Notes: generated from the letters alone by a model not told the origin. 64,000 nt of DNA from Promethearchaeota archaeon (GCA_016840165.1 JAEOSU010000072.1:224001-288000), one strand, 5' to 3'; positions 32,419 through 48,547 are shown, counted from the stretch's first letter. Translations and numbers: made by a program.

Positions 32419-33042
32419 ATGACAGCTAATACTCAAAAAGGAATGGAAATTGAGTTAAATCATAATCAATTTACTTTATTAGGGTTAGTTTCTGAAGGAG
32501 AGCCAGAATATCAGTATCAAGCAACATATCCATACATGATAAATAAAAAAATAAAGGAGAGAGGTATGGAGGCATGGACAAATATAGGAGAAATGGGCAG
32601 ATCGTCTATTTACCGAATTTTAAAAGAATTAGAATCATTGAAACTTATTACTCACTATACTGAAGAAGTAGATAATAGAAGGCGTAAAGTGTATTCTATT
32701 ACAGAAAAGGGAATTACTCTTTTAAAGAAAAGAATATACGAGGTTATAAGTAACTTTATAGGAAAAAACGATGAAGATTTTTATGTTGCATTTTCCATGC
32801 TTCCACTCTTGAGTCAAGAACAACAAATTGAAGCATTCACTAAATCAATTGAAAAGATAACAAATCATATAGAGGAATTAGAAGAAATGCTAAAACAAAA
32901 TGCTCAATTCCCTCTTAATGTTACTGGATTATTTATGCATCCTATTGAAATCCTTAAAACGGATGCTAAATTTCTCAGATGGGTATTAGAAGAATTAAAA
33001 AAAGGAAAAGGAAAAGTAAGGTTTAGTGATTATAATAAATAA
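32419..33042 (+). CDS. PadR-family transcriptional regulator
   Basis: SSIYRILKELESLKLI...RRRKVYSITEKG plus a C-terminal helical domain. Confidence 0.88.
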   Translation: MTANTQKGMEIELNHNQFTLLGLVSEGEPEYQYQATYPYMINKKIKERGMEAWTNIGEMGRSSIYRILKELESLKLITHYTEEVDNRRRKVYSITEKGITLLKKRIYEVISNFIGKNDEDFYVAFSMLPLLSQEQQIEAFTKSIEKITNHIEELEEMLKQNAQFPLNVTGLFMHPIEILKTDAKFLRWVLEELKKGKGKVRFSDYNK

Positions 33043-33086
33043 CAGAGCAAATTGATATATAATAATATAGATTAGGTGATTTTAAG

Positions 33087-34223
33087 ATGAAATATATTAT
33101 AAAGGATTTTGTTCATAGAATAGGACAGCACTGTGAGTCATCTTCGATGCGTGATTTATTCGAATACTACGGATTTCCTATGTCCGAGGCAATGGCATTT
33201 GGTCTTGACGGAACTATGGGATTTGGATTTTTCGATAGCACAGGTCAAAGTTCATTTATTCCAAATACTGAAGTTCCCTTTTTTATTGGGGGAAAACAAG
33301 GAACGATAGAGCCTAATAGCCTAGCGTGTCGATTATTAGGAATTAGTTTAAGGAAACAATCGTTTACAAGTACTAATAAAGCGTGGGAGGAATCCATAAA
33401 ATTAATAGATCAAGATACGCCTCTCCTTATAAGAGTCGATATTGCTTATATGCCATATGAAGATTTTGATACAGAACTTGAGGTAGCTCATTTTGGTGGG
33501 CATGCTGTCACGTTGGGGGGATATAATGACCAGAAGGAAATAGCATATATTGGTGATACCGAATTTGAGGGATTTCAAGAAGTTCCAGTGAAAGTTCTCA
33601 AGGAAGCAAGAAGTTCAACTCATGGACCTAAATTTTTACATCCCAAAAATACACAATTTTCTATGACTCCTCGACCTGATGGAAAACATCCCCCATTAGC
33701 AGCAGGTATAAAATTAGCGATCCAACAAGTTGTTAATAATATGCTACGACCATCAATGAACTTTAATGGAATCCAAGGATTAAAAGGATTTGCCAAATCA
33801 ATTCTTACATGGGGGGAAAAACTTAAAAAAAGTATCATAGATTCTAAAAGTGAACATATTTCTTTAGCTCATCTGATGTTTGAGCTTATATATGGATATA
33901 TTGAAACCTGGGGTACAGGAGGAGGTTCATTCCGTAGACTCTATAAAGACTTCTTAGTTGAACTAAATCAGCATTCTGAGCTTAGAGAAGGTTCTAGAGC
34001 GTGGAGTTCTGATGAATTTAGCATTCTTGAAGAAGTTATCCCATTAATTGGTGATTCTGCCGATAAGTGGACTTATATCGCAGAAATTCTGAAGAAATCG
34101 GTGGATGAATATAAAGATGACTGTTTAAATCATGTTGATTTCGGTCAATTACACAATATAGCAATTGATATCTTAACTAAAGAAGAGGAAGCATTCAAAA
34201 AATTATCAAAACTTAAAATTTAG
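33087..34223 (+). CDS. BtrH-like (papain/C39-like Cys-His) protein with DUF4872-like C-terminus
   Basis: GQHCESS, SEAMAFGL, HFGGHAV, GTGGGSFRRLY. Confidence 0.8.
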   Translation: MKYIIKDFVHRIGQHCESSSMRDLFEYYGFPMSEAMAFGLDGTMGFGFFDSTGQSSFIPNTEVPFFIGGKQGTIEPNSLACRLLGISLRKQSFTSTNKAWEESIKLIDQDTPLLIRVDIAYMPYEDFDTELEVAHFGGHAVTLGGYNDQKEIAYIGDTEFEGFQEVPVKVLKEARSSTHGPKFLHPKNTQFSMTPRPDGKHPPLAAGIKLAIQQVVNNMLRPSMNFNGIQGLKGFAKSILTWGEKLKKSIIDSKSEHISLAHLMFELIYGYIETWGTGGGSFRRLYKDFLVELNQHSELREGSRAWSSDEFSILEEVIPLIGDSADKWTYIAEILKKSVDEYKDDCLNHVDFGQLHNIAIDILTKEEEAFKKLSKLKI

Positions 34224-34234
34224 GTGTGCAATAA

Positions 34235-34663
34235 ATGGAAAATAATAACTTAGCAGCACCATGTGGAATGTATTGTGGGATGTGCCGACAATACTTAGCT
34301 TTAAAAAAAGGACTATTAGAAGAGAAAGGTTTGAAATTAGGTTGTCAAGGATGTCGAATACGAAATAAAAATTGTGTATTTATAAGGAGAGACTGTTCCA
34401 AATTAAGAAAGAAGGAAATTGAGTATTGCTATGAATGCGAGGAAATGCCTTGCAATAACCTCAAGAAAATTGATAAAATATACATAGATAGGTATTCTCT
34501 AAGTTTCATAAAAAACTTAAGAAGAATTGAAGAGATTGGAGTAAAGTCATGGCTTCAAGAGCAAAAAGAACTCTACACTTGCCCAGAATGTGGAGGGGAA
34601 ATTTGTATTCATGATGGGGAGTGCTATGATTGTGGTTTAAAAATAAATCCAAATATAGGGTAA
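34235..34663 (+). CDS. DUF3795-like Cys-rich protein
   Basis: APCGMYCGMC, CQGCR, YCYECEEMPC, CPECG...CYDCG. Confidence 0.8.
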   Translation: MENNNLAAPCGMYCGMCRQYLALKKGLLEEKGLKLGCQGCRIRNKNCVFIRRDCSKLRKKEIEYCYECEEMPCNNLKKIDKIYIDRYSLSFIKNLRRIEEIGVKSWLQEQKELYTCPECGGEICIHDGECYDCGLKINPNIG

Positions 34664-34672
34664 GAGTAAGAA

Positions 34673-35089
34673 ATGATAGAGGAAAAAGTAAGTTATTGTG
34701 GTTTATATTGTGGAGCATGCCCTTCTTTTCATAAAGGAACGTGTTTAGGATGTAGATCAGAGGATAAAAATCAGAGTAGAAAATCCAAGTGGAGTTGTAA
34801 AATTCGAAAATGTTGTATTGAGGTAAAAAAGATTGAACATTGTGGTCAATGTGAAGATTTCCCGTGCAAAGAAATGAATCGAAAGCTCATTAATTCGCAT
34901 CAAAATGATCCTAGATTTGAATATCGCCATAAAATACCTCAAAATATGAAAGCTCTTAATAAGTTGGGTCTCAGAGAATGGGCTCAAGCTCAAGCAAAAT
35001 TATGGTGTTGTATAGATTGTGGAAAACCCATAATTTTTTATTATAATAAATGTAGTGTATGTGGAAAAGAAAAGAATAAAAATGTCTGA
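34673..35089 (+). CDS. DUF3795-like Cys-rich protein (paralogue)
   Basis: YCGLYCGAC, CLGCRS, CKIRKCC, HCGQCEDFPC. Confidence 0.8.
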   Translation: MIEEKVSYCGLYCGACPSFHKGTCLGCRSEDKNQSRKSKWSCKIRKCCIEVKKIEHCGQCEDFPCKEMNRKLINSHQNDPRFEYRHKIPQNMKALNKLGLREWAQAQAKLWCCIDCGKPIIFYYNKCSVCGKEKNKNV

Positions 35090-35753
35090 AAAAATATTAA
35101 AAGAATTGGATGCTGAGGGGCTTCGAAATGTTTTTCTTAAATACACGAGAAAGGCATTTAAAAGTCTCCCAAAGATCGATAATCCTCGCATTCTTGATGT
35201 TGGATGTGGTACAGGTCAACCGAGTCTAGAGTTGCTCAAATTAAGTGATGGTGAGATCTATGGAATTGACATTGATCAGGGCGCATTAGATAAATTAAAA
35301 TTTAAAATTAAACAAAAAGGACTATCGGATAGGCTGAGAATTTATAATTATTCTATATATAATACCCAATTTGATGATGACATGTTTGACATAATATGGG
35401 AAGAAGGAGTATTGCATTTGCTTAAAATTGAAAAAGCTTTAGCTGAATGTAAGAGAGTGTTAAAATTCAATGGATTCATGGTTACAGGGGAAACAACTAG
35501 CTGGGCAGGGAAAAGTCTTAAAATATTCCCTAAATTTGGTTTTAAATTAATAAAAGAAATAAAATGGGAAAGAGAATGTTGGTGGACAGAATATTACGCT
35601 CCTTTAGAAAAAAAAATAAAAATCTTGAAAAATAAATATGGAAATATTGAAAGGATTGAGCAAATTAGACGACATCTTAGGGAAATAGAAATGGTTAAAA
35701 AAAATCCCTCAAAATTTGATTGTACAACTTATATAATGCAAAAAATTAAATAG
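35082..35753 (+). CDS. Class I SAM-dependent methyltransferase
   Basis: ILDVGCGTG, FDIIWEEG; the ATG at 35082 overlaps the upstream stop. Confidence 0.88.
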   Translation: MSEKILKELDAEGLRNVFLKYTRKAFKSLPKIDNPRILDVGCGTGQPSLELLKLSDGEIYGIDIDQGALDKLKFKIKQKGLSDRLRIYNYSIYNTQFDDDMFDIIWEEGVLHLLKIEKALAECKRVLKFNGFMVTGETTSWAGKSLKIFPKFGFKLIKEIKWERECWWTEYYAPLEKKIKILKNKYGNIERIEQIRRHLREIEMVKKNPSKFDCTTYIMQKIK

Positions 35754-35768
35754 AGGATGAGTGAATAA

Positions 35769-38270
35769 ATGGATTTTATAAAAGTAAGAGGCGCAAGAAT
35801 TCATAATTTAAAAAATGTAGATGTAGATATTCCCAAAGGAAAATTGATTCTTATAACCGGCGTATCTGGCTCAGGGAAGTCTAGTTTAGCATTTGATATC
35901 ATATTTGATGAGGGGATGAATCGTTATCTGCAATCAATCGGCTTCCCACCTAAATTTGAGGATGAAAAACCGTTTGATATGATTGATGGGTTAAGTCCTA
36001 CGGTTGCTGTAGAACAAAGAACAACAAGAGTATTTAATCCTCGTTCGACAGTTGGAACTAAAACAGGTCTTTATGCCCTCCTACGTATGTTATATGCCAC
36101 AGAGGGAATCTTAATTTGCCCAATTTGTAAAGAACCAGTCAATCAAGCTACTTTGGAATGCGAATTATGTGGAATGGTAGTTGATCGAAAACAAATAAAA
36201 CATTTTTCCTTCAATGAACCATCAGGAATGTGTTTAGAATGCAAAGGGAGAGGCTATAAAATGTTTTTAACAGAAGATATGATTGTTCAAGATTATAATC
36301 GGAATCTAATAGAAATCACTAAAGCTGGATCTGCTGTATTTGCAGATCAAATTAGATTTGTAGAACAATTACCAAGATTTTATAATTTTGACATTAATAC
36401 TCCCTATAAAGACTTGCCAGATGAAATAAAACAAATTTTCTTATATGGAAGTGGAAAAAAACTGAAGTTTCAATGGGAGTCGAAAACATTCTCTGGAGAA
36501 TTGGAACGAGAATTTGAAGGCGTTATCCCTCATATTAAGCGAGCTTTAAGTGAGAGTAAGAGTGCATATCGACGACACAAGATTCATAGTAATTACATGG
36601 CAAAAAGGAAATGTGATGAATGTGATGGATATAGAATAAATAAAGAAGCACAAGAGATAAAGATTGAGGGCAAACATATTGGTGAATTAGCAGAAATGCC
36701 TATTGATGATTTGATTGGCTATTTGGATAAATTACCAAGAAGTAATTTTAATAGCCCACAAGGCTCATCAGTTCTAGATTTAATCCTAGTAAGTCTTAAT
36801 CGCATGGTGAGGGTTGGATTAAAATATCTACATTTAAATCGAACATTACCAACTCTAAGCGGGGGAGAATTACAAAGATTATCACTAATGACTCATTTAG
36901 ATGGAGGGCTAGATTCATTAATATACATATTAGATGAACCAAGTATGAGTTTGCATGAGCGTGAAAAGGATTCTTTAGTAGTTATATTGGAGGAACTAAA
37001 AGATTTGGGGAATTCTGTAATAATTGTTGAACATGATAGACGATTTATTAATATTGCTGATGAAATTATTGACATTGGTCCTGGAGCAGGTGTGAATGGT
37101 GGTCGAGTTGTATTCCAAGGAAATATAAAAAAGATTAAGGAAATTGAAGAGTCTTATACTGGTCAGTTTCTCGCAGATAAAATCCACTTGCCAATTAAAT
37201 TAGAAGATGACCGAAAATCAATTGATAGCGAGACCAGATATCTCACAATTAAAAATGCAACAACTAATAATCTTCAAAACATAACTGTTAATATCCCATT
37301 AGGAATGATGGTAGGTATTGCAGGAGTTTCTGGATCTGGTAAGAGTTCACTTATATTAGATACCCTTGTCCCACTACTAAAACCCCTCTTCAAACGAGGA
37401 AGTAATAGCAATAAAAAAGAAAAAAATGATAATGGAACCAACGAAGAGGATGAGGAAGATCTATTAGAATATTCTGGAACTTTAGAAGGTTGGGATAACT
37501 TAGATAATGTAGTGGTTATTAATCAAAAACCGATATCCCGAGTAAAAACCTCTACTCCTTGTTCTTATATAGGAATTTGGGGTAAAATAAGAAGCATTTT
37601 TGCTAAAACTACAGAAGCAAAGAAAAGGAAATATACACCTGGTCACTTCTCTTATAACTCCGAAAGTGGAAGGTGTCCGATATGCAAAGGAAGCGGGGAA
37701 CAAGATTTACAAATATCATTTATTAGCAGTTTCTCGATTCCTTGTAAGGAATGTAAAGGATCACGGTATAAACCAGAAATTTTAGATATAACTTTCAAGG
37801 GCAAAAATGTTGCTGAAGTACTTGATATAACCGTAAGTGAAGCGCTAGATTTATTCAAGTCTCAAAAAAGTATCTACAATGTTCTCAAGATCTTAGATGA
37901 TATTGGTATGGGTTATATGGCTTTAGGACAACCTGCACCAACTCTTAGTGGCGGTGAAGCTCAGCGAGTTAAACTTGCGAAGGAACTTGGAAAACTTCGG
38001 AAAGGAAACTCACTGTATATTCTTGATGAGCCTACGGTAGGTTTAGCATTTTATGATGCTATTAAACTTGTAGAGCTATTAGAGAAACTTGTTCAAGAAG
38101 GGAATAGTGTGATTATTATTGAACATGATCCAGAGATTCTCTCCTATACGGATTATATTATTGAATTGGGACCAGAAGGGGGACCAAAAGGAGGAGAGAT
38201 AATTGCAGAGGGCCCACCAATTAAAATTAAGTCAAATGAGTATTCAAATACTGGTCCATATTTAAACTAA
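35769..38270 (+). CDS. uvrA: UvrA-like ABC ATPase (class II / DrrC-like)
   Basis: GARIHNLKN, two GVSGSGKSS Walker A motifs, two LSGGE signatures, Zn fingers. Short (833 aa), appears to lack the UvrB-binding insert, and has no adjacent uvrB/uvrC. Confidence 0.88.
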   Translation: MDFIKVRGARIHNLKNVDVDIPKGKLILITGVSGSGKSSLAFDIIFDEGMNRYLQSIGFPPKFEDEKPFDMIDGLSPTVAVEQRTTRVFNPRSTVGTKTGLYALLRMLYATEGILICPICKEPVNQATLECELCGMVVDRKQIKHFSFNEPSGMCLECKGRGYKMFLTEDMIVQDYNRNLIEITKAGSAVFADQIRFVEQLPRFYNFDINTPYKDLPDEIKQIFLYGSGKKLKFQWESKTFSGELEREFEGVIPHIKRALSESKSAYRRHKIHSNYMAKRKCDECDGYRINKEAQEIKIEGKHIGELAEMPIDDLIGYLDKLPRSNFNSPQGSSVLDLILVSLNRMVRVGLKYLHLNRTLPTLSGGELQRLSLMTHLDGGLDSLIYILDEPSMSLHEREKDSLVVILEELKDLGNSVIIVEHDRRFINIADEIIDIGPGAGVNGGRVVFQGNIKKIKEIEESYTGQFLADKIHLPIKLEDDRKSIDSETRYLTIKNATTNNLQNITVNIPLGMMVGIAGVSGSGKSSLILDTLVPLLKPLFKRGSNSNKKEKNDNGTNEEDEEDLLEYSGTLEGWDNLDNVVVINQKPISRVKTSTPCSYIGIWGKIRSIFAKTTEAKKRKYTPGHFSYNSESGRCPICKGSGEQDLQISFISSFSIPCKECKGSRYKPEILDITFKGKNVAEVLDITVSEALDLFKSQKSIYNVLKILDDIGMGYMALGQPAPTLSGGEAQRVKLAKELGKLRKGNSLYILDEPTVGLAFYDAIKLVELLEKLVQEGNSVIIIEHDPEILSYTDYIIELGPEGGPKGGEIIAEGPPIKIKSNEYSNTGPYLN

Positions 38271-38401
38271 GTTTAAGTATAGTAGGATTATAGAGAATAT
38301 GATTATTCAAATTATAGGTGTCAAAGAGAATAATCTCAAAAATATTTATGTATCCATTAAAGATTAGGAAAGCTCAAATATATAGAAAAACTGAAAATAT
38401 C

Positions 38402-39016
38402 ATGGAAAACCTCAAAAAAAAGGATTTTGTACCTGAGAGTCTTGTTAATGAATCAATATCAAATCCAGAAATTCTAAAAGAATTAGTAAATAATCTACTC
38501 AAAAAGGAGGATACAATCAGGTATAATAGCCATAAAGTATTACTGTTAGTGAGCGAAGCTAATCCTGAGATCCTATATCCTGAATGGGTTTTCTTCGTTA
38601 ATCTATTAAAGAGTAAAAATAATTTTCATAAAGTAATTGGTATTCAAATTTTAGCAAATCTTTCTAAAGTTGATACTCTAAACAAATTTGAAAATATTTA
38701 TGATGACTACTGTGATTTACTTGATGCGAAAAGCGTGATGACGACAGCACATTTAGCAGCGAATATAGGTAAGATAGCTAAGAATAAACCAAACTTAAGA
38801 GAGAAGTTAACTCAAGTATTATTAGATATAGATAAAACTCATCATGAAATTGGTCGAAAAGATTTAATTAAAGCGTCAGTTATTGACTCTTTTACGGAAT
38901 ATTTCAATGAGATAAAAAATAAAGAAGAAATAATAAGATTTGTAGATGCGCAATTGAAGAGTAAAAGTCCTAAAACGAAAAAAAAAGCTGAAGAATTTCT
39001 TAAAAAATTTAAGTAA
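38402..39016 (+). CDS. HEAT-repeat/alpha-solenoid protein
   Basis: Amphipathic helical repeats (IRYNSHKVLLLVSE; HKVIGIQILANLS). The start is uncertain (38318 GTG vs 38402 ATG). Confidence 0.65.
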   Translation: MENLKKKDFVPESLVNESISNPEILKELVNNLLKKEDTIRYNSHKVLLLVSEANPEILYPEWVFFVNLLKSKNNFHKVIGIQILANLSKVDTLNKFENIYDDYCDLLDAKSVMTTAHLAANIGKIAKNKPNLREKLTQVLLDIDKTHHEIGRKDLIKASVIDSFTEYFNEIKNKEEIIRFVDAQLKSKSPKTKKKAEEFLKKFK

Positions 39017-39081
39017 ATAGAGCGATATATACTAATAATAAATAATTATAGTCAAATAAAAAAAAAGGAGATAGGGAATTT

Positions 39082-39489
39082 ATGAGAAATTCGCTACACC
39101 ATGCCCATCTATTTGCGACCAATGTTGATGAAAGCATTAAATTTTACAAAGAAATGTTTGGAGCTAAGTTATTATTCGATTTGGAAATGGCAGGAGCTCG
39201 AAATATAATGATTCAGATTGGAACATCAAAAATCAATTTCTATGATCAACCCCCTAAAGATCTAGGGCGAGGTACGATCCATCATTTAGGAATTGAAACT
39301 GATAATTTAGAAGCTCTCGTAGAACATATGAAGAGTAAGGGTTTTCAATTTAGGAAAGATATAAGAAGTTTTGGTCCTATGAAATATGTTATGGCAGGAG
39401 CTCCTGATAATGTACTTTTAGAGCTTTTTGAGGTAGTTAAAGATAAATTACCACAAGATCAATATGAATTAATATCATCATTGGACTAA
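39082..39489 (+). CDS. VOC/glyoxalase family protein
   Basis: LHHAHL...FYKEMFG, IHHLGI, APDNVLLELFE. Confidence 0.88.
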   Translation: MRNSLHHAHLFATNVDESIKFYKEMFGAKLLFDLEMAGARNIMIQIGTSKINFYDQPPKDLGRGTIHHLGIETDNLEALVEHMKSKGFQFRKDIRSFGPMKYVMAGAPDNVLLELFEVVKDKLPQDQYELISSLD

Positions 39490-39620: not shown

Positions 39621-39676
39621 TGAATAATTATTCATGTGTCACATCATTGTGACAGGATTGTGACAACATTTAAATA
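39621..39676 (+). promoter_or_regulatory. Candidate operator array at the actin promoter
   Basis: Perfect palindrome TGAATAATTATTCA (39621-34); TGTCACA (39637), TGTGACA (39648) and TGTGACA (39659) at an 11-bp period; TTTAAATA at 39669-76. Confidence 0.6.
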
Positions 39677-39834
39677 TTATAATTAGTTTTATCTTATTAA
39701 AATCAAATGCTGGAATAAATCTTTAGTTATTAATGTATTAAACAAGATCAGAGAAATTACAGGATATGTTGATTTAATTAAAACTTAATAGCCTAATGAG
39801 AAATTGTAGCATTATACCAACAATAAGTAAAGTC

Positions 39835-40986
39835 ATGGAGAATTATGATATGAAAGATATTAATTTTAAGAAAGCAATTATAATAGATAATGGAACAGGA
39901 ATCTCTAAGAATGGTTTTGGTGGTGAAGATCAACCGAGATCAGTTTTTCCAACTATGATGGGAACTCCAAAATACGGAACAGTAATGCCTGATGTAAAAC
40001 ATTTCTCAAGAGAGCATTATATTGGAGAGGAAGCAATGGAACTGAAAGGTCTATTGAATCTTAAATTTCCAATTGAACACGGGATTGTGGAAGATTGGCC
40101 TGCAATGGAAAGACTTTGGCATTATACTTTTTATACAGATTTAAGGGTTGATCCTTCAGAGTATCCAGTTCTTCTTACTGAAGCACCATTAAATCCTCGC
40201 CAAAATAGAGAAAAAATGGCTGAAATTATGTTCGAAACATTCAATGTTCCTGCGTTATATATTGCTATGCAAGCAGTCTTATCATTATATGCTTCAGGAA
40301 GAACTACAGGGACAGTAATAGATATAGGAGATGGAGTTTCTCACATCGTTCCAATTTATGAAGGATTTGCTTTAAGTCATGCGATAGAAAGGATTGATTT
40401 AGCTGGACGGGATGTAACAAAATATATGAAAAGATTATTGCGTCAGAATGGTTATTCATTTACCACTAGTGCAGAAACAGAAATTGTAAGAGATATTAAA
40501 GAGAAGTTGTGTTATGTTGCAATTGATCCTGAAAAAGAACTTTTACTTTCAAAGAAAGTTAGCGGTATGAATAAACATTACATGTTACCAGATGGAGAGA
40601 CCGTGAGTCTAGGCATTGAAAGATTTTTAGCACCTGAGTGTTTCTTTAATCCCTCAGTTATTGGAAAAGAATTAGAACCTATTGATGAACTTATTGTCAG
40701 TGCAATAACTGAGTGTGATGTTGATCTTCGAAGAGATCTTTATAGCAATATTGTTCTGTCTGGTGGATCTACAATGTTTCCTGGTATTAAAGAAAGAATA
40801 ATTAAAGAAATAAAAGAAATGATCTCTGAATCTGTGGATGTTAGGATCATCAGCCCACCCGAACGAATGTATTCCGTTTGGATTGGAGGTTCGATTTTGG
40901 GCTCATTAAAGACCTTTCATAGAATGTGGATCACAAGGCGAGAATACAAGGAATTTGGACCAACGATAATTCATCGTTGTTTCTAA
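39835..40986 (+). CDS. actin: Asgard actin (Lokiactin-like)
   Basis: [76 protein letters not shown]-terminal HRCF. The start is 39835 or 39850 (track: 39796). Confidence 0.97.
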
Positions 40987-41032
40987 TAAAAGTATTATTT
41001 TTTTAATTTCCCTTAACGAGGAAAATAAAAAT

Positions 41033-42235
41033 ATGGAAAATGTAAGGAATAAAATTGAAAAATATCTTGATTCAGAATCGAGAATAATCTCTACCACAAT
41101 TATTGAAGAGAGAAATAAAATAGTATACACTTCAGATAATTGGGACATATCTGATGATTTAGACTCAATCAATTCCTTATGGGAGTTAGAGAAGCATGGA
41201 GAATTGATAGTTAATAAAATTAAATATAAAATTATACAAATGTCCTCTGAAAAATTAGTGGCTATGAATTTGGAAGGTAAAGGGAGTCTTATTGGTTTTA
41301 AAGATGATGAACGTAGAATTATCTCTAGAGTGGAACCAGGTGATGCTGCTTTTATAGGGTTAATGGAATCTTCGAGGACATTGGGAAGGCTTCGTAAAAA
41401 GGATCCTTATCTCGATCCTAATACTAAGTTAGGTAAAATAAACGATGTTATATGGGCAACACCAAAAGTGTTACTTAATGACACCTATAATTTACAGAGA
41501 TTAGGATTATTAAAAGTTGGATTAACCCTGGATGAGGCAAAAGTCTATTTAGCTTTACTACAAAGTGGTGAAGATGGAGAAAAAGTTGGAAATCTAAATA
41601 AACAATTGGAAATAAAGAGAACAACAATATACCGAATAATAGATCGATTAATAAACAAGGGATGGGTATATAAGTTAATGGAAAGACCAACAGGTACAAC
41701 ATTATATATAGCTAAGCCACTAAATGAATTTATCGATGACATTATCGAGGAAAAAGAAGAAGAACTAAGAATACTAAAGAGCTTCCGATTTGTGATGGGA
41801 GAAAGTTCAGAAAATGGTTGGATTGACTTTTCCAGAGAGAATGATACATTGGGATTGATTGGACTAGAGAAAGATTGTGGTCTGATTGTATTCGAATATG
41901 ATGAGATTGTTAAGGAAAAAGTGATTATTCAGGCTGCTTTACAATTATCCTATGAAAGATTAAAGAAACATTTACAACTGGATTCAAATGAAAAAAAAAA
42001 TATTAATCAGGACATTGAGGATATCAAAATTACGAATATTAATATAAATGAGTATTTTGGAGCTAATATGTATATTAGATTTAAAGAAGGGACAAAAAGC
42101 GCGAATAATGTGGGCAATGACTGGATTTTATTGACAAAACATGTCGCGATTCCTATTGAAGATAAAATTTATGTAATTTGGGGTTCTGAGGAAAAATTTC
42201 CAATATTATTAAGCATAATTTTAAAGATAAGATAA
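41033..42235 (+). CDS. Profilin-like domain fused to a TrmB-type winged-helix domain and an unassigned C-terminal domain
   Basis: aa 1-135 resemble Lokiarchaeal profilins (IVYTSDNWDI, IKYKIIQMSSEKLVA, GKGSLIGFKDDERRII, PYLDPNTKLG). aa ~155-250 are a TrmB HTH (GLTLDEAKVYLALL...IKRTTIYRIIDRLINKGWV...LYIAKP). Confidence 0.75.
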   Translation: MENVRNKIEKYLDSESRIISTTIIEERNKIVYTSDNWDISDDLDSINSLWELEKHGELIVNKIKYKIIQMSSEKLVAMNLEGKGSLIGFKDDERRIISRVEPGDAAFIGLMESSRTLGRLRKKDPYLDPNTKLGKINDVIWATPKVLLNDTYNLQRLGLLKVGLTLDEAKVYLALLQSGEDGEKVGNLNKQLEIKRTTIYRIIDRLINKGWVYKLMERPTGTTLYIAKPLNEFIDDIIEEKEEELRILKSFRFVMGESSENGWIDFSRENDTLGLIGLEKDCGLIVFEYDEIVKEKVIIQAALQLSYERLKKHLQLDSNEKKNINQDIEDIKITNININEYFGANMYIRFKEGTKSANNVGNDWILLTKHVAIPIEDKIYVIWGSEEKFPILLSIILKIR

Positions 42236-42755: not shown

Positions 42756-45700
42756 TTAGTATTTCAATTCTACCCAATTTTCCAACTCAAGATAAAGCTT
42801 TTTTAGATTGTTAATTTGATCATCATTCGCTTCCCAATAACCCCTATTATTCGCTTGAAGCATATTTTTTATGATGTCCATCATCGCAAAACGGTTATTT
42901 TCTTCTAATAAATCTCTCAACTCTGCATTTTCTATGTATTGATCATAAGCTTTATCCCAAATCCAGTTATCTACTTTATGTGTCGTGGCAGATAGCCCTA
43001 GAAAATTCTCCACACGCTCTGCAACTTTTTGCCCACCATGGTATTTATGCTTTAGGAGAGTTTTAATCCACTTAGGGTTTAATGAACGAGTTATTGCTCC
43101 TTCCTTGATGCTCTCTTCAAGGCGTTGTACTTTTATTTTTTTAGAAGAAGAATCTGCGATATAAATATTTGCTTCCTTCCCACTTAGTTCCTTATAAGTA
43201 CGTGCTAAACCACCAGTGAATTCATAGTAATGATCTAAGTCTGTAATAGAATATTCGCTCGAATCGCGAATTTGACTCATGATTTCAACTTCATTAATAG
43301 TTTGAGAAAAATTTTCAACCAACTGCTTTACTTTTTGGTTTTTCATATAAGCAAAACTCATGTTTCTTATATAATCCTCCGCTAATTCTTTTTCATCTCC
43401 CCATTTTCCAGCAGAGATAATCTCAGTTAAATTGGTATTGTATTTGCCTGGAGGTGGACCAAACACTCGAGCTTTCGCATTCTCTAATCCTTTTTGTTGC
43501 ATTGTTAAGACTGATTTCTTTACGAAGTTCTGATTAACATCCTCATCTAATTCTGCTACTAATTCTATTGCTTTATTGATTAACTCTAAATGATAGGGAA
43601 AAGTATCACGAAAAATTCCGCATATTGTGATAAGAACATTTATTCGTGGATGCAGCATCTCCTCTAAAGGTATAACTTCTAATTCAGTAGTCCAGATGGA
43701 TTTATTCTTGACGGGTCTTACACCTAAATAATTAAAGATCTGACCTATAGTCTCTCCTCCAGTTTTCATGGTTTCAAAAGCCCAAAGCACAACACTCACG
43801 GACTTGGGCCATTCTTTATTATTATTTTGATAATCTTGGAGGAGTTTTTCTGCTATCTCATTACCACGAGTTAATGCTGTCGAATTAGGAATGAGCCGGG
43901 GGTCAAATCCATAAGAATTTTTCCCAGTTGGAAAAATATGTGGTGAACGAATAGGATCACCCCCTAACCCTGGTTCAATATATCCACCTTCCAAAGCATG
44001 GATAATATTATCCAATTCTAACGTATCATCGATTTTAAATATTAACTCTCGCATCCAATCAATCGTATACTCTATTAAGTCATCCTTGGTGTCAATGTAA
44101 GAAGTCAATTCATTTTTAATATCATTAAAGGACTTGTCTAAAGATAAAAATTCATAAGATTCATCTATAAATCTATCAAGCAATTCAGTGTCAAGAATAT
44201 GATTATCAATTTTGAAATAGAATAAAAAATCTTCTATATATGAGGGTTTCTCCGTAGAATGAAGGATAATGTTTTTTAGAAGATCTTTTTTCTGATCATC
44301 TGTATAGTGAATTCCTAAAGAATGCAATCCCATAGGAATTATTTCTTGTTTGTAATTATAGAGTTTATCCTCTAATTCAGAAATAGTACTATATTCAATA
44401 TTCATTTGCTTAGCCAATTCTCTGATCTCCTGACTTAAGTCACCAATCCTAACATCATTTTGTTCGAATTTAGGATTATTTTCTGAATTAAAGGAGATTC
44501 TTTGATATTCAGAGATTAATTCTTCTAATTTCTCAAATTCATCATAAAGACCCGATTCTTGAAATGTGGGTCCCGCATGGTTAATAATAAGTGCATTCCC
44601 TCTTCTCTTGGCAATCGCAGACTCACTAGTATTAGTTATGTGATAATAATATATATTGGGAAGAGTTCCTATTAATTTCAAATTAAAGTCATGAATCCAG
44701 CCAGCACATTCTTTCCCCGGGAGAAATTCTTCAGTTCCATGAGTTCCTACATGGATTAGGACATCGACGTCTAAATTCTTTTCAAGATAATGATAGAAAG
44801 CTAAATATTGATGGTGAGGGGGCAAATTTTTATCATGGTATTCATTACTATCTCCCGAAACTCTACTTCTTGATGGTTGGATACAGAGATATATATTACC
44901 AAAAGAAATTATTGGCAATCTAATATGAGAATTAGCAAGCATTATATCTCCCGGTGGTTCACCCCAAAATTGAATAACTTCTTGTTGTTGCTCTAAAGGA
45001 AGAGTATGAAAGTAATGAATATAATCTTGAAGATTTAGCTCTGCACCTTTGTAATCCTTAACATTAGTATATTTTGGTAAATTTACTACCCCATAATTCA
45101 CTAATAATTCCATAAGATTATGTTCAATAGAAAAATCTTCGATGTAATATCCTTCCTGAATCATTTTTGTTATTAATTGCTTAATTGATTCTGAAACGTC
45201 TAGATATGCAGCATTTCCAATTTTATCTTCTCCTGGAGGGTAATTATATACAATAATCGCGATTTTTTTGTCTTGATTTTTTTTTATTCTTAGTTGCAGC
45301 CATTTTTTAATTCTTTCGCAATATAATGCAATACTTTCTTCTAATGGTTTGACTTCAAGAATATTAGAATTTATTTTCTCCGAAAAACCTAAATCCTCAA
45401 GTAACCCAACAGTAGTCATTTCTATTCGACCATCTAATTCAGGCATGACTATGGCTATAACTTGATTGATAGGAATAATGCCCTCCTTTGATTTAAAGTA
45501 CTCTTCAAATGTAATATCATATTGAATAATTGGATTAAATTGGGGAATATCCATTTTCTTAAATAAATCGAGAGTAGTTATACCATTACCACCAAAGGGT
45601 CCACCATTCAATTGAAAATATTGAAGATTAATAACTGCACTGACTAAACATCTTCCATTGGTAAAGAATAAGGTTTCATAAGCATCAATATTTGTTAATA

Positions 45701-46565
45701 CATCAGAAAAAATGGGAAGTAAATTGAATTCGGATAAGTTCCTCATAAATTCTTTCACGATAGGAAGAGATTGTTCAAAATACAAACCTCCATAATAAAA
45801 TATACCAACAGTTTGTTTTTTGGGGTCATAATTAATTTTTTGAAAATATTCTTCAGAAGTTTGAAAATATTCGCTTAGGAGGGGATCGTAAATACCATAT
45901 GGTGGAATTTTTTTTGGTTTCTCAACTTGAAGGTTCTTATATCCAAGATAGTGTTTTAAAAGGAAGAGTATCATATTTTTATGGTTTACCGCAATACCAC
46001 CTAAACCATGTACCCAGTAATCCATCATCATAACCCAATATCGAGCATGTCTTAAAGTCTTTACAGGAAAAACTTTACCTAAAAAACCTAAGAATTTCGT
46101 CATTCTTTGACCAAATCGTACTGCTTTGGTCAAATCAGGAATTTCATCGATATTGTATCCATCACTACTTGGGGAGGGAATTTTTCGTGCTTGAAATGAT
46201 CCCATTTTAGTTAGACCTCTTATTTCACTATTCCCCCCGACTAACGCAACAATTTCTTTAGTTTCAAATAAATTAGGATTTTCTTCCTCCATCTTTCTAT
46301 AAGTTTTAACCAAGATTTCAACTGTAGGAGAATTTCCACGAATATCTAATAACATTATATCAGATTTATAGATGGAGGTAATTAATTCCTCTTCTGGAAT
46401 CTTTCCAGAGTCCAAATCATTTAAGAAATAAATTTTAAATTCGAAAAGTTTACCTAATTCTTTATATAGTTCATCAATTGCTTCAGTTAACCACTTTAAA
46501 AAAACAGACGTTGTAATTAAGGATATTTGAGGCAATTGTTTAGTATTTGGATTCGTTGAATTCAT
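42756..46565 (-). CDS. CobN/magnesium chelatase H-family large subunit
   Basis: MPELDGRIE, YNYPPG, PPHHQYLAFY, HVGTHGTEEFLPGK, PTGKN, CGIFRD, DLDHYYEF; has a ChlH-like N-terminal domain. Confidence 0.9.
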   Translation of the reverse strand: MNSTNPNTKQLPQISLITTSVFLKWLTEAIDELYKELGKLFEFKIYFLNDLDSGKIPEEELITSIYKSDIMLLDIRGNSPTVEILVKTYRKMEEENPNLFETKEIVALVGGNSEIRGLTKMGSFQARKIPSPSSDGYNIDEIPDLTKAVRFGQRMTKFLGFLGKVFPVKTLRHARYWVMMMDYWVHGLGGIAVNHKNMILFLLKHYLGYKNLQVEKPKKIPPYGIYDPLLSEYFQTSEEYFQKINYDPKKQTVGIFYYGGLYFEQSLPIVKEFMRNLSEFNLLPIFSDVLTNIDAYETLFFTNGRCLVSAVINLQYFQLNGGPFGGNGITTLDLFKKMDIPQFNPIIQYDITFEEYFKSKEGIIPINQVIAIVMPELDGRIEMTTVGLLEDLGFSEKINSNILEVKPLEESIALYCERIKKWLQLRIKKNQDKKIAIIVYNYPPGEDKIGNAAYLDVSESIKQLITKMIQEGYYIEDFSIEHNLMELLVNYGVVNLPKYTNVKDYKGAELNLQDYIHYFHTLPLEQQQEVIQFWGEPPGDIMLANSHIRLPIISFGNIYLCIQPSRSRVSGDSNEYHDKNLPPHHQYLAFYHYLEKNLDVDVLIHVGTHGTEEFLPGKECAGWIHDFNLKLIGTLPNIYYYHITNTSESAIAKRRGNALIINHAGPTFQESGLYDEFEKLEELISEYQRISFNSENNPKFEQNDVRIGDLSQEIRELAKQMNIEYSTISELEDKLYNYKQEIIPMGLHSLGIHYTDDQKKDLLKNIILHSTEKPSYIEDFLFYFKIDNHILDTELLDRFIDESYEFLSLDKSFNDIKNELTSYIDTKDDLIEYTIDWMRELIFKIDDTLELDNIIHALEGGYIEPGLGGDPIRSPHIFPTGKNSYGFDPRLIPNSTALTRGNEIAEKLLQDYQNNNKEWPKSVSVVLWAFETMKTGGETIGQIFNYLGVRPVKNKSIWTTELEVIPLEEMLHPRINVLITICGIFRDTFPYHLELINKAIELVAELDEDVNQNFVKKSVLTMQQKGLENAKARVFGPPPGKYNTNLTEIISAGKWGDEKELAEDYIRNMSFAYMKNQKVKQLVENFSQTINEVEIMSQIRDSSEYSITDLDHYYEFTGGLARTYKELSGKEANIYIADSSSKKIKVQRLEESIKEGAITRSLNPKWIKTLLKHKYHGGQKVAERVENFLGLSATTHKVDNWIWDKAYDQYIENAELRDLLEENNRFAMMDIIKNMLQANNRGYWEANDDQINNLKKLYLELENWVELKY

Positions 46566-46567
46566 TA

Positions 46568-48547
46568 TTATTCACGCTTATTATGAACTAATCCTTCACT
46601 TTCCAACACACTACTCACGTTTTCTTGATTCATGTTGCTTATGTGATAGTACAATGCATTGGACGCTTCTGCAAATTTTTTATTGATTCCAAGTTTCACA
46701 TCTGTCGCTTCCGTATCAATTATTATCATATCGATGCCATTTTTTGTTATTTCCTTGCCAATATTCATTATATCTTTAATTGGATCTTTAAAAAATACAT
46801 TTCCTCGGGCATCAGAAATAAGAATAATCAATGGGATATATCCTGTACTCTTTCTCTTTTCTTCAAGAGCAATATTTAAGGCTTTACTTAAACCTGTGAC
46901 CAATGGGGTTGTACCCCCCGTTGGGACCTCTTTTAATAACTTATATGCTAAATCAGTACTTCTTGTTGGAGGTAGAATTACTTCAGCATCATCTCCTCGG
47001 AAAACCACCAAAGATACTTTATCACGGTATACATAATTAGATTGGAGTAGAGAAAAAATTACCCCTTTTACAGCTTGCATTCTATCGTTTGCACCCATTG
47101 AACCGGAAGCGTCGACACAAAAAATAATTAAGTAGCTAGATTTCCCAATCCTTCTTTTAACGTGTATATGCTCTTCTCTAACTTTTAATTTGTCACCATT
47201 TTTAACTGCTTCTTTATTCTCAGATTCTAATGCTGCTGTGTTAAGAGTTTGTAATACTGCGATGTCTGCAGAACTTGTAAAATTGAAATTTTTAGGCTTT
47301 TGACCACTAATATATTTTCCTTTCTTATCTTGGGTAGGATGGAGTAATCTTTGTCCGGAAGTATTCATTTGCTTTTTCATTCTTTTCTTTTCCAAAACTC
47401 TATCTGCATTAATGGATGTATCGATGTCAAAAGTTCGTTCTTTTATATTATTAATCATTTTTTCATTAATTTCCTTTGAATCAGGGGGAAGAGTAGCTTG
47501 TTCTTCTAGTTGCTGCTCCTCATTAAACATCTTATCGATTTCCTCTTCATCGATAACATTTTCTTCAAAGGGAAGTTTTCTTAAACGGTGAGCTAAAGCT
47601 AACTTAGCTGCAATTTTAATGTCATCATCAACTACTTCTTTCCTTCCATTAAAGGCCGCAATTGTTTTAGCAGTTATGTTAATGGTAATATCTGCGCGAT
47701 GACTATCAATCTCTAATTGTACAGAAAGTTGAGCGATTTTCTTTAGTTGCTCTTCTGAAATTTGAACATTATCAATAATTTTGCGAGCATTCACAATTTT
47801 TTCTCTCAAAATTTTTTGCTCATGCTCGAATCTATCGTGGAACTCATGAGGATCAATGTGATATTGCTCAGAATATTTAATTATTAGAACGCGCTTATCA
47901 ATATCTAATATTGGTTTTGCTTCTACACTTAGACCAAATCGATCTAAAAGCTGGGGTCGTAAATTTCCTTCTTCGGGATTCATTGTTCCAACTAAAATAA
48001 AGTTGGAGGGATGATGAATACTTATTCCTTCACGTTCAATTATGTTTATCCCCATGGCGGCACTGTCTAATAACACATCTGCAACATTATCCGCAAGCAA
48101 GTTAACTTCGTCAATATAGAGAATATTCCTATTCGCTTCAGCTAAAATTCCTGGTTCAAGAGCTTTTAATCCCTCTTCTAAAGCTTTTTTTATATCTATA
48201 GTTCCAACCACTCTATCTTCGGTTGCATTAATAGGGAGATTGATTACTCTCATCTTTCGTGATTCTATGTCACTTTCATCTAATTTATTTTCGATAATTT
48301 TATGTTGACACGCATGACATGATTCTTTTAAATTATCAGGATTACAATTGAAAGGACAATCTTTAATAATTTTGATTTCGGGGAGTAAATCTGCCAATGC
48401 TCTGACTGCAGTTGATTTTGCTGTTCCTTTCGTTCCTTTAATTAGTACACCTCCAATTTTAGGATTGATCGCATTTAAAATCAGCGCAAGTTTCATTAAA
48501 TCTTGTCCTACTATTGCAGTAAAAGGATATGTTTTAAAGTGAGTCAT
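46568..48547 (-). CDS. Chelatase AAA+ subunit with C-terminal vWA domain (ChlD/ChlI-like)
   Basis: [40 protein letters not shown]; vWA DASGSMG and GGTTPL. Confidence 0.9.

Follow-up and report, generated by a model that had tools for sequence, protein, structure and literature searches.

An optional cassette of a second actin gene and a profilin-TrmB-type fusion regulator behind a conserved palindrome: a candidate actin-responsive circuit in one family of Loki-type Asgard archaea

The window analysed here, a stretch of 64,000 nucleotides from a Promethearchaeota archaeon, carries a second actin gene followed by a gene whose 400-aa product joins a profilin domain, a TrmB-type winged helix and a C-terminal domain that we call domain X, with a palindrome at the BRE/TATA region upstream. 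This gene order is conserved among genomes, and both genes are under purifying selection. We tentatively read the whole as an optional autoregulated cassette with G-actin as its input; held still more tentatively is the reading as a one-protein prokaryotic circuit, in which the free-actin pool, read by the profilin domain, would directly set transcription of the second actin. The features of the locus are as follows.

39636-39655, no strand assigned: outer operator, with a perfect TGTCAC-N6-GTGACA core at 39637-39654; it ends 13 bp before the TATA box
39647-39666, no strand assigned: inner operator, one mismatch, overlapping the outer one at an offset of 11 bp (22.4 bits)
39669-39676, plus strand: putative archaeal TATA box TTTAAATA, from sequence
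39850-40986, plus strand: second (paralogous) Lokiactin, 378 aa (Pfam Actin, E 6.7e-129)
40987-41032, plus strand: spacer of 46 nt, with a 7-T run at 40998-41004 and without operator
41033-41398, plus strand: profilin domain, aa 1-122 (VIA, Foldseek, complex model)
41399-41482, plus strand: linker, aa 123-150, with a PY motif (low pLDDT; conserved in alignments)
41483-41794, plus strand: TrmB-type winged helix and long helix, aa 151-254 (PF01978; fold)
41855-42235, plus strand: C-terminal alpha/beta domain X, aa 275-400 (pLDDT 80.5 when folded alone)

The actin ORF ends at 40986 and the 400-aa ORF (41033-42235) begins after a 46-nt gap on the same (+) strand, just where the preliminary description had placed it, and all the motifs quoted there are found in this ORF. 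One of them, PYLDPNTKLG, is part of the linker after the profilin fold and not of the fold itself. The earlier account of a profilin plus a winged helix-turn-helix holds for these two domains but left a third one (residues ~275-400) undescribed, and three domains are present in the AlphaFold2 model of the fusion. A chance fusion or a misassembly is ruled out by 164 full-length homologs, in which profilin is fused in frame, so that we are dealing with a profilin domain and not with a stand-alone small profilin protein.

Adjacency to actin had been proposed as a feature to be followed across genomes, and actin lies directly upstream of the fusion in 43 of the 44 informative loci, that is, loci with enough flanking sequence. 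In the exception (L042:1-760), the fusion has been parted from actin and operator by an apparent inversion. The full fusion is present in 13 of the 42 genomes of one Loki-type Asgard family and was found in none of the other genomes searched among 201 sampled from the phylum. An extra actin stands beside the fusion in all 13 fusion-positive genomes of the family, and no second actin above 70% identity was found in the 29 fusion-less ones. Operator, actin and fusion are present or lost jointly across genomes, a pattern that amounts to co-inheritance and not to a statistical test, since the genomes are kin and not independent. Because the cassette is optional (13/42 family genomes), it is not a general G-actin homeostat of the MRTF-SRF kind, and this part of the original proposal is not supported. 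Decayed forms were also observed: two genomes retain a 3' stump of the fusion alone, promoter and actin being gone (L077:3933-4265 and L079:4497-4757), and at L015:3100-3777 the promoter and the first half of actin are lost.

The order of the cassette would be operator and promoter, second actin, in about half of the loci a microprotein, and the profilin-winged helix-X regulator. The microprotein (55-80 aa) is encoded between actin and fusion in ~23 of 43 loci (for example L020:9753-9950 and L017:9741-9950), is present in two copies in L051 and in 19 of 121 family genomes, and is absent from window 40987-41032; it is conserved, carries a hairpin (IIDGIPCI) at the N-terminus and an amphipathic helix at the C-terminus, and matches no known family; its assignment as a WH2 or AbrB protein was dropped, as Pfam, PDB and Atlas gave no support. 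Upstream of the cassette, window 32419-39489 holds a cluster encoding a PadR regulator, a BtrH_N/DUF4872 protein, two Cys-rich small proteins, a SAM methyltransferase, an 833-aa UvrA-like ATPase and a glyoxalase-family protein, several of which recur near the cassette in other genomes. On the other side (42756-48547, minus strand), a CobN/BchH-type chelatase large subunit adjoins a ChlI/ChlD-like gene, and the chelatase block also lies beside profilin-less regulators in L075-L077.

DNA binding upstream of actin had been proposed, and a conserved operator stands there: the upstream regions of the homologous loci have in common the motif TTGTCAC-N6-GTGACAA adjoining the TTTAAATA box. Of 40 promoters, 27 carry a perfect core, and 40 of the 41 homologous promoters examined have TTTAAATA or TTTATATA at this position. 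The region suggested for gel-shift assays (EMSA), 39621-39676, contains both operator and TATA box. In most promoters the palindrome ends 2-3 bp before the TATA box, which is the position of the inner operator, whose right half-site covers the expected BRE and stops 2 bp short of the TATA box. The outer operator (23.2 bits) is the top PWM match in the 3.6-Mb genome, the two window operators are the sole PWM matches above 14 bits in these 3.6 Mb, and across 48 genomes nine of the ten exact pattern matches fall at the cassette promoter. Several candidates were rejected: as members of a wider regulon, the next PWM matches (13.3 and 11.9 bits) and the other perfect TTGTC-N10-GACAA of the genome, all inside ORFs, and as an internal promoter for the fusion, the actin-fusion spacer, with no palindrome in the 21 spacers examined. 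PWM and pattern scans found no operator at the main Lokiactin promoter. Control of the cell's main actin, as first suggested, is therefore not supported; the operator stands at the paralogue's promoter only, and the paralogue is the one actin on which an effect would be expected.

The middle of the protein was confirmed as a TrmB-type winged helix-turn-helix, since residues 160-229 score 47.5 bits against a Pfam cut-off of 25.6 (E 1.6e-12), and the winged helix matches TrmBL2 (5bpd) with a Z of 10.9. Its most conserved segment is the recognition helix KRTTIYRI (mean identity of 79% in aa 194-209), and the long helix that follows probably serves dimerisation. The fusion is the sole winged helix of its family in this genome; elsewhere, profilin-less paralogues consist of winged helix and domain X and are mostly divergent from SAM methyltransferase genes. 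A perfect TTGTC-N10/11-GACAA, found at one site in this 3.6-Mb genome, lies upstream in 10 of the 11 closest profilin-less paralogues. At the paralogue loci TTGTC-N10-GACAA sits between two facing TATA boxes at fixed spacing, ~10 bp from that of the divergent gene and 1-4 bp from the regulator's own, where recognisable. Recurrence of palindromes related to the operator at profilin-less paralogues ties the site to this winged helix. The regulator very probably binds the palindrome as a dimer via its winged helix, with this operon as its sole target here. The actin promoter shares the geometry of the regulator's own TATA box, which suggests that actin was placed under the promoter that had served the regulator itself. 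On this view, a regulator acting locally on a methyltransferase gene would have acquired a profilin domain, and an actin duplicate would have come to sit behind the promoter of that regulator. The regulators with a TrmB-type domain and domain X form an uncharacterised family (L022, L024, L025, L036, L046, L047, L073-L078, L084).

A rival in which some other factor reads the palindrome, or in which the palindrome works as a DNA structure, and in which the fusion adjoins actin only by history, appears very improbable. In its favour, both arms of the palindrome carry symmetric changes at some promoters (TGTCGC...GCGACA), and the L042 fusion stands without operator or actin; but related palindromes follow the winged-helix family to unrelated genes with fixed TATA spacing, and operator, actin and fusion occur and vanish jointly.

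Compared with the TrmB family (Pyrococcus TrmB, TrmBL1, Thermococcus Tgr and the halophile TrmB), the fusion has in common the PF01978 domain followed by a long helix, and, judging from sequence, a palindromic site at BRE/TATA with probable autoregulation. The differences are that the winged helix is N-terminal in TrmB and central in the fusion, and that TrmB has a metabolic regulon whereas a single operon is seen here. Furthermore, the TGM of TrmBL1/Tgr reads TATCAC-N5-GTGATA (PMC4158304) against TTGTCAC-N6-GTGACAA here, and a TGM-like N5 spacing was dropped, the spacer being N6. Domain X gave no match to the TrmB sugar-binding domain. Given the other site, and with no matching sugar domain found, the fusion is not a member of the TrmBL1/Tgr group.

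The N-terminal part is a profilin domain, as proposed, with a Foldseek E of 5.2e-8 and a TM of 0.82 to 5zza and a VIA superposition on Loki profilin-1 (5yed) at Z 18.0 (rmsd 2.1, 123 aligned residues). Residues ~1-122 gave significant matches only to Asgard profilins in a PDB sequence search (5zza, E 6.6e-8), and the family profile matched 5yed (E 8.9e-17) and 5zza (E 1.9e-11). The whole domain has the same fold, an antiparallel sheet between terminal helices, as the known Asgard profilins (Loki profilin-1, 5YED/5YEE; Loki profilin-2, 5ZZB; Odin, 5ZZA; Thor, 7PBH) and shares with them the motifs NW.IS.D and Y.I.Q.T.ER. Those proteins are free and of 120-140 aa, whereas the fused domain belongs to a 400-aa DNA-binding protein, has no Loki-loop insertion, evolves faster and comes from a family-specific group of ~200-aa profilins. 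Indeed, the fused domains are nested among Loki profilins on one side of a 96/88 branch, where the adjoining and nearest group is that of the family-specific ~200-aa profilins, which share the PY motif of the linker. The ~200-aa profilin of this genome is on a contig other than those of both actins, so the parts were probably joined from separate loci, which would argue for function over accident. Profilins of ~200-210 aa that bear a C-terminal tail fall into two families (L002:5951-6556, C49; L003:5544-6182, C29); most genomes of the archaeal family have the C49 type, which is also the nearest to the fused domain. In the same family, profilin domains are also fused to leucine carboxyl methyltransferase (PF04072; L080:1252-2613, L081:1293-2597, L082:4343-5614 and L106); as a speculation, these could be enzymes aimed at the actin C-terminus.

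Cytoskeletal Asgard profilins are known to bind actin (PMC8410842, PMC13716822) and phospholipids (PMC8410842). As had been suggested, the fused domain was modelled in complex with the adjacent actin, and ESMFold2 docked it at 0.69 against 0.00 for the best control; of 80 solved complexes 58 attain this mark, and of 110 mismatched pairs 2 do. The pass may reflect the model's having learnt 5zza/5yee, because solved Asgard profilin-actin complexes exist. In the predicted pose, the domain occupies the barbed-end actin surface used by Asgard profilins; runs share at least 87% of contacts and the partner pLDDT is at least 80. The hairpin motif facing actin, Q69-x-S/T71-x-E73-K/R74, is retained as in Odin and Thor profilins, and the dN/dS of the domain (0.20-0.25) indicates purifying selection. 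Profilin is the fastest-evolving part of the fusion protein and the least conserved on average (43% vs 64% and 58% for the other domains), and its C-terminal helix facing actin is more variable than in stand-alone profilins. The predicted interface positions are not better conserved than the others: taken together they have a mean BLOSUM of 1.49 vs 2.41 elsewhere, and the polar ones among them 2.02 vs 1.99 (p 0.35).

This variability of the interface, with branches longer than those of stand-alone profilins, speaks for a reading that we consider unlikely, namely that the fold has lost actin binding in vivo and serves instead to bind phospholipid or another partner (roadblock/longin-like contacts or the microprotein), reporting membrane state or just oligomerising the regulator. 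Phospholipid binding by other Asgard profilins fits it, as do the matches of the domain to roadblock folds, whose Z of ~10.6 is well below the 18.0 of Loki profilin-1. However, the hairpin residues are kept, the complex model passes, and regulators with profilin sit with actin while profilin-less ones do not. In the reading that we prefer, it is somewhat more likely than not that monomeric actin is held at its barbed end by the profilin domain, be it the main or the second actin, whose profilin faces resemble each other.

The actin gene itself is real; it is a paralogous copy and not the main Lokiactin, the near-invariant housekeeping copy, which is encoded on contig C77 and to which it is 83% identical. 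Its most likely start is ATG 39850, preceded by GGAG at 39837-39840 and used as start codon in close homologs as well. A tree of 62 actins puts the 41 copies linked to the fusion on one side of a 95/99 branch, and within the family the main actins are 98% identical to each other and the fusion-linked ones 83% on average. Lokiactin, the main actin of Promethearchaeia (PMC9834061), and the second actin share a two-residue D-loop insertion and an invariant nucleotide site; the second actin differs in forming a separate, faster-evolving branch and in being optional. A decaying copy is ruled out by a dN/dS of 0.03-0.04 and by a subdomain 2 that is constrained like the rest of the protein or more. 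Nucleotide-site positions are essentially invariant across the copies, and the barbed-end profilin face has a divergence of 0.07 against a mean of 0.16. In contrast to these conserved sites, subdomain 2 holds 12 of the 16 nearly fixed changes (Fisher p 1.2e-8), among them Y37K/T, E41G, S42N, T45P and E48K (actin numbering). M136T (in most copies, not in the window gene) and V134I map to the cleft in which the D-loop is received (PMC12304888). Since subdomain 2 is constrained within clades as strongly as the rest of actin or more, the filament interface was rebuilt early and then kept. Actin subgroups that can be mapped to genomes track genera, which suggests vertical descent with loss. An apparent ATT start after a Shine-Dalgarno-like sequence was seen in 20 of 42 loci (L013, L014, L016-L030, L033, L034, L039), with a stop directly before it in L013, L014 and L016 and with ATG or TTG at this place in the others; such a start may damp or regulate translation of the second actin. 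A third actin type, ~50% identical to the window actin and unlinked to the fusion, is present in three family genomes (L070, L071 and L072).

As to purpose, the cassette could provide inducible defence with an actin less sensitive to filament-severing toxins or to enzymes attacking the D-loop, an improbable purpose in our view though one compatible with actin sensing. UvrA-like ATPases, methyltransferases, a glyoxalase-family protein, PadR and BtrH-like genes are frequent neighbours, but they vary and are without operator. By the general site lists used here, hardly any change is seen at the macrolide-toxin site (0.03), and divergence at the latrunculin and cytochalasin sites (0.12) is below the mean of 0.16, which speaks against defence. 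In its favour, Lokiactin cells respond to swinholide A and cytochalasans (PMC13716822), and M136T and V134I fall in the cytochalasin D cleft, where Ile136 helps form the pocket and the D-loop is received (PMC12304888).

Domain X is common to the fusion and the profilin-less paralogues, and is a candidate second effector domain. It has no match in Pfam, PDB sequences or Atlas features, which does not show its fold to be new, and 53 homologs among 1.84 billion representatives; its best structural matches are Mog1/PsbP-like (Z at most 6.7, not significant). Comparison with the TrmB-type sugar/effector domain gave no Pfam or PDB sequence match and weak fold matches only. The dN/dS of X, 0.11-0.13, indicates a stronger constraint than on profilin (0.20-0.25), and X is the only candidate sensor in the profilin-less paralogues. 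Both observations fit a rival that we regard as possible but doubtful, namely autoregulation via the palindrome with a small molecule at domain X as input, presumably like the parent regulators, the profilin binding actin only to escort or localise the protein, to little transcriptional effect. Yet a low-copy regulator would be a poor actin escort, and a 42-kDa ligand on a dimer beside TFB would be unlikely to be neutral. No longer fused forms of the regulator were found, which is weak evidence.

Under the reading that we prefer, with G-actin as input, binding of actin would be likely to alter promoter occupancy or TFB access, and the free-actin level would thereby set second-actin output. As to the sign of this response, TrmB proteins act as activators at sites upstream of BRE and as repressors at sites that overlap it or lie downstream (PMC4158304). 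TFB-RF1 (PF1088) of Pyrococcus is likewise the product of the second gene of its own operon, where a palindrome directly precedes BRE/TATA; it is an activator with its site just upstream of BRE (PMC5937170), while here the right half-site overlaps BRE. From these geometries, the overlap of operator and BRE favours repression only mildly. We lean slightly towards repression by covering of BRE, lifted as G-actin rises, which would make available, when needed, an actin whose filament interface differs; nearly as likely would be the reverse, in which G-actin blocks an activator by analogy with MRTF. In the MRTF-SRF loop of animals, an actin-monomer-binding module is tied to actin-gene transcription, and this logic would be shared by the cassette. 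The fusion differs from MRTF-SRF in being one protein, without a nuclear import step, and in aiming at a spare actin; furthermore, no Pfam match to RPEL or MADS was found at E up to 1, which leaves no MRTF-SRF homology.

Each part is of a familiar kind: a profilin domain as in Asgard profilins, a winged helix of the TrmB type and a Lokiactin. In the literature, judged mostly by title or abstract and with most subscription papers outside the coverage, neither the fusion nor the operator nor the second actin was found described, and a survey of 256 Asgard profilins mentions N-terminal extensions only. Regulation of the Asgard actin cytoskeleton is, to our knowledge, known at the protein level only (profilins, gelsolins). 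The cassette is a new variant of one-component regulator cassette and offers a full testable set of regulator, unique 20-bp site, target gene and candidate ligand; control of transcription by an actin sensor would, if confirmed, be a new category among prokaryotes. Should actin be the ligand, this would be a cytoskeleton-to-transcription feedback in a prokaryote, with a simple one-component regulator as its evolutionary starting point. As it is confined to one Loki-type family, the cassette is a parallel to eukaryotic systems and not their ancestor, and would, if the reading is true, represent an independent invention of the coupling of G-actin to transcription in archaeal relatives of eukaryotes. 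Even if actin is not the ligand, a duplicated actin with a conserved, rebuilt D-loop and its own regulator is a model of early isoform specialisation.
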